Shown here: positions 3,401-59,316 of the stretch, one piece after another
Numbering within the stretch: the stretch's first letter is position 1
Layout: every line of letters begins with the position of its first letter
DNA from: a virus
Taxonomy: Duplodnaviria > Caudoviricetes
Reading direction: 5' to 3' (one strand)
Length of the DNA stretch: 64,000 bases
Virus record (IMG/VR): IMGVR_UViG_3300028197_000002
The notes under the pieces: model-generated
What the model saw: only the letters and a program-made list of their open reading frames with translations
What the model was told of the DNA's origin: nothing
The model's database searches: none
Position numbers and translations under genes: made by a program

Positions 3401-3868
3401 GACACCTCTGTTATGTGTTCTGATTCTACTCGATTGTTAAGTAGCACTATTACTTTTGATTCTTTTGAAAAAATTCCGTTTGTTGACGAAAATATAATAG
3501 AAAATTTTGTTTACAAAGATGAAATAGGTATTTTTTCCGATTCAGTGTGGAATAAAAAATTAGATTACTCTCTTATTAGAGATGATTTGGCTTCAGGCCC
3601 AGTTGTTTCTGGGGCATTTCCTACTTTTAAGATAAACATACCGATTGGTCAGCCGCTAGAGTATTTTATGACATTGCCTGATGAGTCAATTCCTAAAAAG
3701 CAGCAGCAACTTTTGGACTCTCAAATTCAAAATCCTTTATCTCAAACAGATGTTGATTTGAAAGGTCAATTAACAAGCGGTCGTCCGACTTCAATCGCAC
3801 TTGGAAGCGGTCCGACCGCCATTCGGGTAGACAGCCCCCAATACAACACGATTTTTCCTCCAAATTAA
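413..3868 (+). CDS. Large putative virion structural protein with about 13 GxGGxx(L/I)SG repeats and an internal beta-propeller
   Basis: ATG 413 follows GGAG at 403-406; repeats such as VGSGGITIS, GTGGVSLSG, GSGGVVLSG; five F(N/S)xDGTKMF-type blades at about 2006-2770. Confidence 0.7.
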   Translation: MNYEMGGGVVLSGQVSVTSPYYQYVGSGGITISSAVRQLSDFGIPDFSAVGSGGISLTNRYTYRQNITNSYNFDFLSSYSIQPYTEPFGPSSPTTDNIIIDFTSGYSVGEQRKYWWRIQCCCLPAEEGEGEEGPSEVSLMPLKFNSSINSLIEGLANNSIISPNLIKSLMPSISISSKPLFASLGDANNGLGNQKNKSRNSNRLNRSNGEISALYHEDDHEEEVLCQGIWNSGGSLTCGGNALSLISLVRAPTVNDVCAIIKAPMFGPEYLDIFSVLKIQKWVPEQRLWVDQEYCNAPNCISLCVDYAPEDDHAAFVMSVIENYNEAIGTGGVSLSGSAEASAIIGTCVGQGGVTIAGSLHSVISAAYSFNPNFIGKPPVSLGGSANIFVSHVNSRGGIFLSSSSIEVISIAHFYKSQGGLSIEGSGLDDVRFSTSYDDITYDVIFLTGAAEFTSLLKNFIYDSEGGGVSLSGAAEANSSRYKHDSDGMITISGISETISGRRRYQGEGGISIGGSSYLTRYVVASGGIAICRGYDFTVISGPTSTFDIVGFENRSRNLTFNNDGTKMFVVGETGDDVNEFNLSVGFDLSSSVTFVGTFSVSANCPNPTAVKFNPDGTKMFLTTFGNSNVHEYGLTTGFDVSTASFSQTLITSGNDSDNFGLDFSNDGTKMFITGNQNDKIYEYALSSAFDISTATFTQDLYLGTQDSEPFGIEFIDDGKKLFVVGTLDNGVDEYHLSSPYDISTASHVNFFGVSGNPSGIHINPSATKMFICGTSTDLVKEFDMNSGCDTESYFTFTYTGSGGVVLSGQTSGTTSPSFNFESSGLGPITVTNDGVYVSYRDLGNHEDTFSAVMSTSNLSLNLGNDIADGFSDLSINSGTINTCGCENVGLTIQLVNNLSKVSEIGSFIQRNKLNSLDSLRLHYVNGINSWNNVQHLSGLGADDVTENWKFVFQLSCTNKIENIELENFYFKFLLLVEKQIPSKNIKLKSMFLLNMDTSVMCSDSTRLLSSTITFDSFEKIPFVDENIIENFVYKDEIGIFSDSVWNKKLDYSLIRDDLASGPVVSGAFPTFKINIPIGQPLEYFMTLPDESIPKKQQQLLDSQIQNPLSQTDVDLKGQLTSGRPTSIALGSGPTAIRVDSPQYNTIFPPN

Positions 3869-3894
3869 TAATGACTGGGAATGGTTGATTAAAC

Positions 3895-4092
3895 ATGAGT
3901 TCTACTGAAATTATTTTAATAATTTGCTTGATTGTTTCTATAATAAATTTAATCACCTTATTGTCTGTTTCAAACTTTTTAGTTAGACTCGCTTCAAAGA
4001 TGACAGACGCCCAATTTAATATTGAAAGTGAAGATGAATTAGAAGAAAATAATCAAAATCCTAATAATGATAAAGGTTTAGTTGATGTATAA
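3895..4092 (+). CDS. Small membrane protein (N-terminal hydrophobic helix, acidic tail)
   Basis: ORF with IILIICLIVSIINLITLLSV hydrophobic segment. Confidence 0.65.
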   Translation: MSSTEIILIICLIVSIINLITLLSVSNFLVRLASKMTDAQFNIESEDELEENNQNPNNDKGLVDV

Positions 4093-20225: not shown

Positions 20226-20846
20226 ATGACAGCAGCTTATTATTTGAAAGATATTCGTGCCCATGAACCAGCCGAGTATTATGATTTGCTTTGCAAAAAC
20301 ACAAATTTTAGCTGGAAGGCATCAGGCTGGGAATCTGAAGAAGATCAATACGGAAGATTTTTACTAACTTCTTCTATCATTAAAAAAGAGTCCTCGGTCT
20401 TAGATGTGGGTTGTGGGCAAGGAGATTTGTTCACTTTTCTTGAACAAAGAATGTCAACTAAGCCATTTTCATACACCGGAATTGATGCAAGTGAAAAGAT
20501 GATAGAGATTGCAAAGTCTAAGCATCCTGATGTTCATTTTTCTTGTGTGGATTTTTTAAAGTTAAAAGAAGAGCAGAAGTATGATCATGTTTTTGCTTTA
20601 GGCACGTTTAGTCTCAAGGCTTTAGATCAAGAATCATACATTAATTCTTGTATATCTAAATGCTTTAGATTAACTAATCACACTTGCACAATAACAATAA
20701 CATCAGAAACATCAGAATCAAAATATAACGAGATATTTTATTATAAAGTTTCTGATGTTGCCAAAGTCGCTTCTTCTTTGAGTAAGAAAATTGTCATAAA
20801 CACTGCTTCCTCTCCTTGTGAAATAATTTTAACTCTTTATAAATGA
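20226..20846 (+). CDS. Class I SAM-dependent methyltransferase
   Basis: SVLDVGCGQGD, YTGIDAS, YDHVFALGTF. Confidence 0.88.
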   Translation: MTAAYYLKDIRAHEPAEYYDLLCKNTNFSWKASGWESEEDQYGRFLLTSSIIKKESSVLDVGCGQGDLFTFLEQRMSTKPFSYTGIDASEKMIEIAKSKHPDVHFSCVDFLKLKEEQKYDHVFALGTFSLKALDQESYINSCISKCFRLTNHTCTITITSETSESKYNEIFYYKVSDVAKVASSLSKKIVINTASSPCEIILTLYK

Positions 20847-53871: not shown

Positions 53872-54507
53872 ATGAAGATACTATATCCCCCACACCCCCA
53901 CATCAGGATTTTAAAAAACAAATTAGATAATTATGAAATTGACGGAAAGTGGATTGCTCAAAGAAAATTTAATGGAACTAATGTTGTAGTAAACATTTCT
54001 AAACACGGGGAGATAGGCATTCTCACCAGACACGGAACTGCTCCTAAATTATTTTCTTTATCTCGATCTCACATTGATCAAATAAATTCTTTAAATTTTG
54101 AAAAAGGAAAAGAATATTGGTTAAACGGAGAGTTATTAGATCACAAGACTAAGAATCCAGCATATAAAAAGAAAATTGTTTTTTTTGATGTTTTATATGC
54201 TGGAAATTATTTGGTTCGTAAAATGAACCAAGATCAACGACTTCAATTATTAAGTAATATATGTAAAGATGCAAAAAATACAGAAAATGATATAGCTGCA
54301 AAATGTACTGAGGATATATGGACGGCTGAGAGTTGGAATCAAGATTTTAAATTTCACTTTGAAGAATTTATTGATAGAGATGAAATTGAAGGTTTGATTT
54401 TAAGGCGAAAAGACTCGTTCATTGATAACTTTGGATTTAAAGCACACGATGTTAATTGGATTGTAAAATGCAGAAAACCGCATTCAGGAGGAAATTATGA
54501 ATTTTAG
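53872..54507 (+). CDS. ATP-dependent ligase-like nucleotidyltransferase domain (no OB domain)
   Basis: Motifs I QRKFNG, III LNGE, IIIa FFDVL, IV EGLILR, V VKCR; 211 aa. Confidence 0.8.
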   Translation: MKILYPPHPHIRILKNKLDNYEIDGKWIAQRKFNGTNVVVNISKHGEIGILTRHGTAPKLFSLSRSHIDQINSLNFEKGKEYWLNGELLDHKTKNPAYKKKIVFFDVLYAGNYLVRKMNQDQRLQLLSNICKDAKNTENDIAAKCTEDIWTAESWNQDFKFHFEEFIDRDEIEGLILRRKDSFIDNFGFKAHDVNWIVKCRKPHSGGNYEF

Positions 54508-56565: not shown

Positions 56566-56744
56566 AAACTATAAAAAAACTTAACGAAGCTGCCGCTAAA
56601 AGACACGAAGTAAATGAAAACGTATCTTTAGCTTTTAGAGATGTTGGAATAAATAGTAAAGTTAAAAAAAACAATTTAAAGCCCAAGTCTTTAGATGATT
56701 TAGTTTGCGTTACTAAATGCAAAAGTAGTTTTTGGAACGACTAA
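56553..56744 (+). CDS. Hypothetical protein
   Basis: GGAG RBS; 63 aa. Confidence 0.55.
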   Translation: MWCLETIKKLNEAAAKRHEVNENVSLAFRDVGINSKVKKNNLKPKSLDDLVCVTKCKSSFWND

Positions 56745-56751
56745 TTGAAAT

Positions 56752-57426
56752 ATGATAAAATTAAATAAAAAGATTGTTGATAAAACAACTTTCTATTATT
56801 GTGCTGTATCAATGGGAGTTGATAGTGTTGCTAGTTATTTGTATTTGAAAAACAAATCTTATAATATAGCTCCTGTTCATATAAATCATAATTTAAGACC
56901 TCAAAATGATTTGATGGAAGATAAGTATCGTGAATTATGTCTTCACACAGGGGACAAACCAAGGGTGTTTAAAGCGTCTTTTGAAACTATGAAAACGGAA
57001 TTAGATTTCAGAGGTTTTCGAATAGAAAGCTTTTCTAAACTCTCTGATCCATCTAAGGGTCTAATTAAACCTAATGTGATTACTGCTCATCATTTGAATG
57101 ATTGGGTTGAAAGCTATTTGCTTAATTGTCTTAGAGGTCATCCTAAGAATAGAGTAATGTCATTGGTTAGTGACTTCGCTGATTTTGAAATCACTCATCC
57201 TTTTCTTCTGACCAGAAAAAAAGATTTTAAAAGATATCTAGTTAGAAATAATTATTTAAAATTTGTTGTTGAAGATGAAACTAATAAAATTTTAAAAGGA
57301 AGTCGGAGAAATTGGATTAGGAATTTTTTAGTTCCAGAAATGAAAAAGCAAAAGCTTTCTTTAGAAAAACACGCAAAAAGAAGCATTACAAAATTGACAG
57401 AGGAGTTCGAATCAGTTAGGATTTAG
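56752..57426 (+). CDS. tilS: tRNA(Ile)-lysidine synthetase, catalytic domain only
   Basis: AVSMGVDS (PP-loop variant), HINHNLR, TAHHLNDWVESYL, HPFL, DETN..RNWIR. Confidence 0.85.
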   Translation: MIKLNKKIVDKTTFYYCAVSMGVDSVASYLYLKNKSYNIAPVHINHNLRPQNDLMEDKYRELCLHTGDKPRVFKASFETMKTELDFRGFRIESFSKLSDPSKGLIKPNVITAHHLNDWVESYLLNCLRGHPKNRVMSLVSDFADFEITHPFLLTRKKDFKRYLVRNNYLKFVVEDETNKILKGSRRNWIRNFLVPEMKKQKLSLEKHAKRSITKLTEEFESVRI

Positions 57427-57432
57427 ATTCAT

Positions 57433-57505
57433 GGGGCGGTAGCTCAATGGTTAGAGCCGCAAACTCATAATTTGTTGGTTGGGGGTTCAAATCCCTCTCG
57501 CCCTA
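57433..57505 (+). tRNA. tRNA with CAT anticodon, most likely Ile2 (lysidine-type); CCA not encoded
   Basis: Full cloverleaf: GGGGCGG/TCGCCCT, GCTC/GAGC, GCAAA-CTCATAA-TTTGT, GGGGG-TTCAAAT-CCCTC, discriminator A. Confidence 0.92.
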
Positions 57506-57563
57506 CTTCTGCTTTTAGAAGAAAGTAGATATTCACCTTTTAATAGAAAGTTGGTTTTTCATA

Positions 57564-57725
57564 ATGAATAATAAAAGTTATTTTTTGATCGCGGCATTTG
57601 CTAGTTTTGGTCTTAGTGTTGGACTTTGGTTTCTAGGTAATCAAGAAGTTGCTAAAGATCAAGCCATTTTCGTTGGATTGTGGGTTCCTAGCATTTTGGC
57701 CCTAGGAGGCCTTTTACGTGAATGA
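57564..57725 (+). CDS. Small two-helix membrane protein (53 aa)
   Basis: MNNKSYFLIAAFASFGLSVGLWF..AIFVGLWVPSILALGG. Confidence 0.65.
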   Translation: MNNKSYFLIAAFASFGLSVGLWFLGNQEVAKDQAIFVGLWVPSILALGGLLRE

Positions 57726-57897
57726 TTTCACTTTGTTTCTTTGTGGCCTTGTAGTTGCTTTAGTTGCTGGATTAGGAGTAATCACAAGCGAAGTGTTTTT
57801 AGGCTACTCAAGATATCTTAAAAGCATACAAGACTATTATCGTAAAGAGCATGACAAAAAAAAGTCTAGCTTGAAAGAAAACTATGGAGATGTATGA
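57718..57897 (+). CDS. Small membrane protein (59 aa)
   Basis: GGAGG RBS, GTG start, FTLFLCGLVVALVAGLGVI helix. Confidence 0.65.
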   Translation: MNDFTLFLCGLVVALVAGLGVITSEVFLGYSRYLKSIQDYYRKEHDKKKSSLKENYGDV

Positions 57898-58047: not shown

Positions 58048-59316
58048 TTGACAGTCATGGATGTTATAAATTGGTCCTCAAATCAAATAAATGAATTAAA
58101 GAACCATAAAGGAAAAGGACTTCCAAAGATTGAAGGCAGAAGCAAGAATGCAATCTACAGAAAAATGCGTTCCCTTGGTCTTCAAGTCCAATGCAAACAA
58201 CCTAACTGGTCGGAAGAAGAGCTTGACATCATTTGTTCTTGTGATGGTTCCTACGTTCCTGAGATAAAAGGCAGGAGCGTTAGGGCCATCCGAATGAAAA
58301 TGAACAAAATGGGAATTTATGATTCTACTAGAGCTTTATATTGGACAGAGCAGGAAGTAGAAATTTTAAAAAATCATATAGAGAATAAAAACAAAGGTTT
58401 TCCTGTTATAAAAGGAAGAACCAAAGACGCTATTCGTAAAAAAGCTGAAGATCTAGAATTAAAAATAATTTCTTCTGATATCTGTGGCCGTCATCTCGCT
58501 TGGAGTAAGGATGAGCTTGCAAAGGTTCATCTTATTGCTCAAGGATTGAATGTTGAAATCAAAGGAAGATCTAAAGTTGCTATACGAAACAAAGTGAAGC
58601 AACTGAACTTAAAGAAAAATAGACTTTATGAGGTCTGGACCGAGCAAGAAATTTGTCTCTTAAAACAAAATAGGCCTATTACGGGTCGTAGTTTAAAAAG
58701 TATTAATAGAAAAAGAATAGATTTAGGGTTGCTAAAAAGAAAGCCAAGAAAGTCTTGGACTTTAAAAAATGAGAGAATTTTAAAAAGACTTGTAAGCAAA
58801 GGTTATTCTGCGGCGCAGATTCTTAAAATGGGAGTTTTGCCTAAGAAGTTTACAAGATACGCGATTCAGAAAAAAATGTGCCGATTAAATCTTTCTGAAA
58901 AAATGTCAAGTTATAAAAGGTTTTCAAAACATAGCCAATTGCTTTTCGAAAAGTTTTTGAAAAAAAATTGGGAAAACAAACTTCCTCAAGAACTTGCTAA
59001 CCAATGGAATGAATTAAATCCTAAAGAAAAAATCTCTAGCAGAAGAGTGATAAGATATCTTTCCAGATTAGAAATTAAGGTTTCTTCTTATGAGATGGGC
59101 AAAATAAGAAGGCAGAAAGAAAAAGAAGAAAAGATTATTAAATCATCATCTGATTTTAATTCAGCAAAGAAATTGAATGAAAAATTAAGATCTAATCGTG
59201 TTGAATTAATGCGAAAAAGATTTGAGCAAAATAAAAATATATGGACTGGATTGGATATGCACAATTATGAATTAGAAGCTTTTGGAGATTTTAAGCGATG
59301 TCTCAACAACGTTTGA
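58048..59316 (+). CDS. Tandem Myb/SANT-like HTH repeat protein (6 clear repeats)
   Basis: W(S/T)xxE..L....I.GRSxxAIRxKxxxLGL repeated. Confidence 0.75.
   Translation: MTVMDVINWSSNQINELKNHKGKGLPKIEGRSKNAIYRKMRSLGLQVQCKQPNWSEEELDIICSCDGSYVPEIKGRSVRAIRMKMNKMGIYDSTRALYWTEQEVEILKNHIENKNKGFPVIKGRTKDAIRKKAEDLELKIISSDICGRHLAWSKDELAKVHLIAQGLNVEIKGRSKVAIRNKVKQLNLKKNRLYEVWTEQEICLLKQNRPITGRSLKSINRKRIDLGLLKRKPRKSWTLKNERILKRLVSKGYSAAQILKMGVLPKKFTRYAIQKKMCRLNLSEKMSSYKRFSKHSQLLFEKFLKKNWENKLPQELANQWNELNPKEKISSRRVIRYLSRLEIKVSSYEMGKIRRQKEKEEKIIKSSSDFNSAKKLNEKLRSNRVELMRKRFEQNKNIWTGLDMHNYELEAFGDFKRCLNNV

Follow-up and report, generated by a model that had tools for sequence, protein, structure and literature searches.

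A one-domain TilS-like enzyme encoded beside a tRNA(CAU) on marine phage DNA: a probable module for AUA decoding

The DNA analysed here (the window) is a stretch of 64,000 nt with a G+C content of about 30%. On its plus strand, nt 56752–57426 encode a one-domain (N-terminal-domain-only) TilS-like PP-loop enzyme of 224 aa, which was recognised from the ORF, matches to PF01171 and TIGR02432, a phmmer search of the PDB, and an AF2 model searched with Foldseek. A 6 nt spacer (ATTCAT, nt 57427–57432, plus strand) separates the stop codon from position 1 of a 73 nt tRNA (nt 57433–57505, plus strand) whose anticodon is CAU; it shows features of the Ile2 type and lacks an encoded CCA. No second tRNA occurs in the window, and the single one adjoins the only TilS-like gene. 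TilS converts C34 to lysidine, after which tRNA-Ile2 is charged by IleRS and reads AUA. An earlier note on this DNA had drawn attention to the pair, and its description was borne out: the end of tilS at 57426, the start of the tRNA at 57433 and the 6 nt gap were confirmed from the sequence, ARAGORN and Rfam; the size of 224 aa and the lack of C-terminal domains by Pfam and by the alignment to Aquifex aeolicus TilS (1wy5), which ends at residue 230 of 317; the replacement of SGGxDS by SMGVDS at residues 20–25; and the C5-G68 pair, discriminator A and missing CCA by a cloverleaf parse.

PF01171 is the sole Pfam domain in the protein (residues 17–191, 1.4e-20). The top NCBIfam match is TIGR02432 (TilS_N), with a score of 80.3 bits that lies below the cut-off of 93.6; a relative from a marine MAG (G006) scores 86.3 bits with the same model, and the other PP-loop tRNA-enzyme families of NCBIfam gave E-values above 0.01 with the 224-aa protein. 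The phmmer search of the PDB returned the TilS proteins of A. aeolicus (1wy5) and E. coli (1ni5) as top matches, and the motifs HxNHxLR, TAHHLNDxxE, RG, EDETN and RNxIR are common to all three. The alignment to the A. aeolicus enzyme stops ahead of CTD1, and neither CTD1 nor CTD2 was detected in the phage protein by Pfam or in this alignment. The AF2 model, computed with 37 relatives as input, has a pLDDT of 93.4; in a Foldseek search of the PDB the TilS entries 2e21, 1ni5, 1wy5 and 2e89 ranked first (TM ~0.75), and TtuA thiolases were the next fold matches. By sequence and by predicted fold, the protein corresponds to the catalytic domain of TilS alone. Individual residues presumably have the roles that the alignment and structural work on TilS assign to them. 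PHROGs holds no family for the protein.

The PP-loop (nt 56809–56826, plus strand) reads SMGVDS, a variant in which Met takes the place of Gly at the second position of the canonical SGGxDS. In an alignment of 37 sequences, whose members are ~50–95% identical to the window's protein, S20, M21, G22, D24 and S25 are invariant, and with 46 further positions they form 51 invariant columns that include all of the catalytic motifs. SMGxDS is also found in 21 of 21 close IMG/VR loci (L001–L021), and among the 80 IMG/VR loci examined the remoter clades of one-domain viral mini-TilS carry SSGxDS or SGGxDS. As the Met is invariant across the clade, SMGVDS is not a sign of decay or of a crippled enzyme. 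The proteins with SMGxDS make up a large family, with members of ~200–260 aa on big viral contigs. More than 350 relatives were collected, ranging from 123 to 392 aa (the best 120 have ~205–255 aa), with none of at least 393 aa; a profile search of 1.8 billion cluster representatives gave a best 150 matches of which nearly all have 196–260 aa. A fragment or split tilS, with the missing domains encoded 3' of the tRNA, was ruled out by the lack of longer relatives and by the downstream DNA, where the next ORFs (53, 59 and 51 aa) have no family match and are followed by a 422-aa repeat protein. The small ORFs downstream of the tRNA specify membrane proteins. The repeat protein (nt 58048–59316, plus strand) consists of repeated GRS..AIR.K units and shows a weak GcrA-like match (PF07750, 9.6e-4). 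Automatic UniProt names for phage proteins include "TilS, N-terminal domain". Among GenBank phages, a DNA search matched the tRNA only, and a protein search gave identities of 32% at most.

The tRNA was found with Rfam (RF00005, 66.4 bits, E = 3e-12) and with ARAGORN, which placed it at the same position with a CAT anticodon and one additional 3' base. The anticodon occupies nt 57466–57468 (plus strand), C34 at nt 57466 being the predicted lysidine site. The acceptor stem consists of G1·U72, G2-C71, G3-C70, G4-C69, C5-G68, G6-C67 and G7·U66, and the discriminator A73 is followed by CTT, so that CCA is not encoded. The D stem has C11-G24 and U12-A23; the anticodon stem has G27·U43 and three A-U pairs at 29–31 (A29–A31 with U39–U41), and it carries the loop CUCAUAA with A37 and A38. 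This loop, A37, A38 and A73 are necessary for an assignment to Ile2 and not sufficient, because elongator tRNA-Met has them too. According to published rules, Met and fMet tRNAs are ruled out by G3 or C70, which point to tRNA-Ile(CAT); Ile is signalled by any 3-70 pair that is not C-G (G3/A3 or C70/U70); C4-G69 and C5-G68 are frequent in tRNA-Ile(CAT); and initiators are marked by a C1xA72 mismatch, A11-U24 and a run of G29–G31 (PMC1635315). All three initiator marks are missing from the window's tRNA. Two of the Ile-type marks, G3-C70 and C5-G68, are present, and the 4-69 pair is G-C, not C-G, which counts against the assignment in so far as E. coli TilS uses C4-G69. G3-C70 occurs in 10 of 10 distinct linked tRNAs of the SMGxDS clade, in which the other acceptor pairs vary. 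The closest E. coli gene is a PGAP-annotated tRNA-Ile with a CAT anticodon (80% identical over 55 nt). When the tRNA body was compared with 63 tRNAs of the marine bacterial family of MAG G006, the nearest tRNA-Ile reached 0.78 and Met 0.69, which gives mild support only, as this reference set is rich in Ile. Judged by the published rules and by similarity, the window's tRNA looks like tRNA-Ile2 and not like tRNA-Met.

The spacer between tilS and the tRNA measures 5, 6, 13, 24 or 25 nt in relatives. A consensus scan found a promoter-like TTGACA-17-TAGGAT (10 of 12 matches; nt 57394–57422, plus strand) within the 3' end of tilS, 10 nt ahead of the tRNA. Promoter-like sites in the region are no more numerous than in shuffled controls, and this one is not conserved in relatives, so it is a candidate only; co-transcription of the tRNA with tilS is equally possible. 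On the other side, 3 nt 3' of the tRNA, lies an A/U-rich hairpin of 9 bp without a T-run directly behind it (nt 57508–57529, plus strand; 57508–57516 pair with 57521–57529, RNAfold −8.4 kcal/mol). Two marine RNA libraries yielded only contigs of 151–161 nt, at nt 56656–56806 and 57524–57726, for which DNA carry-over is possible; none of them covers the tRNA, which shows neither expression nor silence. In four relatives (L016 at ~2756–2828, also L002, L011 and L015) the linked tRNA is flanked by inverted repeats of 7–18 bp, which would make it the loop of a long hairpin; no such bracket surrounds the tRNA of the window.

A motif-based scan of IMG/VR returned 256 loci, 80 of which were examined; all of their proteins have 197–263 aa. 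A tRNA lies within 100 nt of the mini-TilS gene in 22 of the 80, on either side of the gene, and all 22 tRNAs (~14 distinct sequences) have the anticodon CAU. By comparison, five large relatives yielded 57 tRNA matches in total, 5 of them with CAU. At the 21 close SMGxDS loci, a CAU tRNA begins 5–25 nt downstream of the gene in nine, 16 nt downstream with a group I intron after the anticodon in two, and 283 or 616 nt downstream in two more; one contig ends just past the gene, and the remaining seven loci have no CAU tRNA within 3 kb, showing that the enzyme does not need a neighbouring tRNA. The adjacency recurs across clades and in both gene orders, and the pairing of tilS with tRNA(CAU) is not due to chance. 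A conserved partner protein was also considered and rejected, since the flanking genes change between relatives; the one exception is a pair of small membrane ORFs shared by three loci. Two variant tRNA genes may be mentioned. The intron in the CAU tRNA of L013 (nt 3671–3930), and of L014, matches Rfam RF00028 (59.2 bits), and L026 carries a tRNA-like gene (nt 2891–2990) whose anticodon arm contains an insert of 37 nt; a mini-TilS gene of the SSGVDS type follows 10 nt downstream.

Each of the five large relatives has a single CAU tRNA, the one linked to tilS. Their other tRNAs are mostly of the U34 type, reading A-ending codons, and include a tRNA-Ile(UAU) in four of the five (G001, G003, G004 and G005; L113, L123, L125 and L129), so that the module is partly redundant there and two routes to AUA exist. 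In the 76 ORFs of the window, AUA makes up 637 of 18,945 codons (33.6 per 1000), or 43% of the Ile codons, and is twice as frequent as AUG, in agreement with the earlier note's impression that ATA is common. The corresponding figures for E. coli and B. cenocepacia are given as 4.9 and 0.6 per 1000 in Table 1 of PMC12514573, and the marine bacterial family of MAG G006 uses AUA at 9–12 per 1000, about one-third of the phage rate.

The wider window encodes a Dda-like helicase (PHROG match, 1.2e-75) and a long island of sugar-modification genes, and near-identical DNA is present in seawater metagenomes from 16 studies. The helicase match and the bacterial-type tRNAs led to rejection of the possibility that the DNA belongs to a giant virus of a eukaryote. 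An RNA-ligase-like protein of 211 aa (nt 53872–54507, plus strand; PF09414, 1.1e-7) is encoded 2.2 kb upstream of tilS, and a copy with 66% identity lies upstream of tilS in IMG/VR locus L011. A further RNA-related candidate is a class I SAM methyltransferase of 206 aa (nt 20226–20843, plus strand), which matches the PHROG 'tRNA methyltransferase' (7.3e-9) and, in Pfam, generic methyltransferase domains only.

All TilS enzymes are described as carrying one or two appended domains, which are held to be necessary for activity and for rejection of tRNA-Met (PMC11947777, PMC12514573); in type I enzymes, CTD2 reads the acceptor pairs 3-70, 4-69 and 5-68 (PMC11947777). The type II enzyme of A. aeolicus (317 aa; 1wy5, 2e21, 2e89) resembles the phage protein in its PP-loop domain and in the motifs HxNHxLR, TAHHLND, RG, EDETN and RNxIR, but its PP-loop is SGGVDS instead of SMGVDS, and it has a CTD1 that reaches the anticodon stem, whereas the phage protein ends after the helix leading to CTD1. 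Type I TilS (E. coli MesJ, 1ni5; the TilS–tRNA complex of G. kaustophilus, 3a2k) shares the catalytic domain and the substrate class, tRNA-Ile2(CAU), but has both CTD1 and CTD2. The phage protein has neither, although the linked tRNAs keep G3-C70, and with both domains missing its recognition of the tRNA would have to rest on the anticodon arm.

Viral TilS genes as such are not new, as the earlier note had already remarked. The Pseudomonas jumbo phages MIJ3 and PA5oct are comparable in having a TilS gene and tRNAs on an AT-rich jumbo genome, and TilS of PA5oct is reported to be transcribed throughout infection; the passages on TilS in these accounts mention neither a one-domain form nor a link to a tRNA (PMC6892783, PMC7318152), and the host is stated there to have a TilS of its own (PMC6892783). 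Both proteins are absent from the results of a tblastn search of the GenBank phage set at E 1e-5, being too distant from mini-TilS. For a T4-like vibriophage, a passage in a review describes lysidine (k2C34) on a phage-encoded tRNA(CAU) (PMC13191261), from which it follows that phage tRNA-Ile2 is real and functional; the present case differs from that description in that the phage supplies the enzyme too, beside the tRNA. Chloroviruses and giant viruses (PMC7589089) and the plastid tilS–trnI(CAU) module (PMC13494906) offer further parallels, in the retention of TilS with heavy AUA use and in the idea of a module, but they concern eukaryotic cells or plastids and other architectures, with no adjacency to a tRNA described. 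Published work thus covers both viral TilS and a lysidine-bearing phage tRNA(CAU), and our literature search found no paper on a one-domain TilS or on its regular pairing with a tRNA.

Taken together, tilS and the tRNA probably constitute a module with which a large marine T4-like phage supplies its own means of decoding AUA, and a role in AUA decoding is the most likely predicted function of the cassette. The earlier note had proposed such an enzyme-plus-tRNA cassette, and the comparative data lend it support, with the motifs and fold kept, a tRNA of Ile2 type, a conserved pair and high AUA usage. The note also raised, as possibilities, a host with rare use of AUA, the replacement of a tRNA cut by host defence, and a private specificity of the enzyme for its own tRNA. 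In the proposed mechanism, the tRNA would be released from the tilS transcript by an RNase P cut 6 nt past the stop codon, or would be made from a weak internal promoter, and CCA would be added by the host enzyme. The 224-aa enzyme would adenylate C2 of C34 in the adjoining phage tRNA(CAU), and lysine would then displace AMP. With the resulting LAU anticodon the tRNA would be charged by the host IleRS and would read no codon but AUA, and the benefit would be decoding capacity for the AUA-heavy genes of the phage. Rates (kobs) of 0.03 and 4.2 per min are quoted for two TilS orthologs in Table 1 of PMC12514573; given such slow enzymes, a burst of new tRNA-Ile2 would need its own modifying enzyme.

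Among the other explanations considered, an ordinary elongator tRNA-Met that lies next to tilS incidentally, or an inactive remnant of the enzyme, is extremely improbable. ARAGORN labels the tRNA as Met, by its anticodon, and one type of linked tRNA in remote loci (the L061 group) has a Met-like C3-G70 pair, but the constant G3-C70 of the clade's linked tRNAs, the absence of a second CAU tRNA from the five relatives searched and the recurrence of the adjacency across clades and in both gene orders speak against this reading, as do the 51 invariant columns. It is also quite improbable that the protein is a TilS-derived enzyme of other chemistry or target, placing another amine on C34 or acting at another tRNA position, instead of a lysidine synthetase. 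The invariant Met of the PP-loop would fit such a change, as would C126, which is invariant and peculiar to the mini-TilS family in the alignment, the score below the curated TilS cut-off, and the second place of TtuA-type thiolases among the fold matches. However, the protein retains motifs specific to TilS outside the PP-loop, EDETN and RNxIR among them, it has no Cys cluster for an Fe-S centre, and its C63 has a counterpart Cys in the alignment with E. coli TilS. Its constant partner is, moreover, a CAU tRNA, which to our knowledge represents the only known class of TilS substrate. Defence or host shut-off as the main reason for the cassette appears very unlikely. The phage would then replace tRNA-Ile2 that is cut by an anticodon nuclease or lost in RNA degradation, and the enzyme would mature the replacement. 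A vibriophage study, as described in the review passage, ties phage tRNAs to degradation of host RNA (PMC13191261), and the RNA-ligase-like gene upstream of tilS, with its copy in L011, would suit this explanation, as context only. Against it, the tRNA sets of the relatives are the usual sets for A-ending codons expected from codon bias, and the very high use of AUA is a sufficient reason by itself. Nor is any nuclease directed at tRNA-Ile2 known to us.

The preferred reading of a module that adds to decoding capacity has also to be set against a host that lacks TilS altogether, in which case the cassette would bring the whole lysidine pathway to a lineage that decodes AUA by means of tRNA-Ile(UAU), rather than topping up an existing one. 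A search of 185,579 species genomes for clade-specific motifs produced one match, on a 6.6-kb phage-like contig in the marine MAG G006 ('uncultured Pseudomonadales'). No TilS scored above the NCBIfam cut-off in the 31 genomes of the family of this MAG (G006–G036, 0.7–1.5 Mb; L132–L194), and a tRNA-Ile(UAU) with the loop CUUAUAC is present in G006 itself and in 27 of 30 sampled relatives; this small-genome marine (gammaproteobacterial) family may be a TilS-less lineage. The phage-like contig (C80, locus L131) carries a TilS-linked tRNA(CAU) at nt 3731–3804. Over positions 8–66 this tRNA is 90% identical to the tRNA-Ile(UAU) of G006, with an entirely different acceptor stem; this likeness in sequence may reflect exchange between the phage and the host lineage. 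These data suggest that some of the phages infect TilS-less hosts, which would account for enzyme and tRNA moving as a pair, but for the window's phage the link is weak. It concerns a relative whose TilS is 52% identical to that of the window, and the assignment of so short a contig to a MAG by binning says little about the host. The body of the window's tRNA is only 78% like the family's tRNA-Ile(UAU), 20 kb of window DNA found no match in MAG G006, and whole-tRNA identities between the phage relatives and this MAG are at the background level of 60–80%. MIJ3, furthermore, infects P. aeruginosa, which according to a passage in PMC6892783 has its own TilS, so that a host without TilS is not required in general. 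For the window's phage, a TilS-less host as the reason for carrying the enzyme is considered unlikely. A bolder combination, which we hold to be fairly unlikely, is that the one-domain SMGxDS enzyme selects its tRNA without an appended domain and, with that tRNA, constitutes a portable and self-sufficient lysidine system that works in TilS-less hosts as well, the family of G006 being an example, where it would restore a lost pathway.

In current enzymology, one appended domain at the least is regarded as necessary for TilS to be active and to tell tRNA-Ile2 from tRNA-Met, both of which have the anticodon CAU. A large, strongly conserved family that consists of the catalytic domain only, and is usually encoded beside its presumed substrate, is a natural minimal system, with which it can be asked how much of the tRNA is read, what reads the conserved G3-C70 pair, and whether mis-modification of the host tRNA-Met is tolerated or exploited. 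The module also illustrates the investment of large oceanic phages in the decoding of AUA, for which some have two routes at once, and the finding points to a marine bacterial family that seemingly lives without TilS. If a portable system does operate in such hosts, the phage would reinstate a means of decoding lost from its host.
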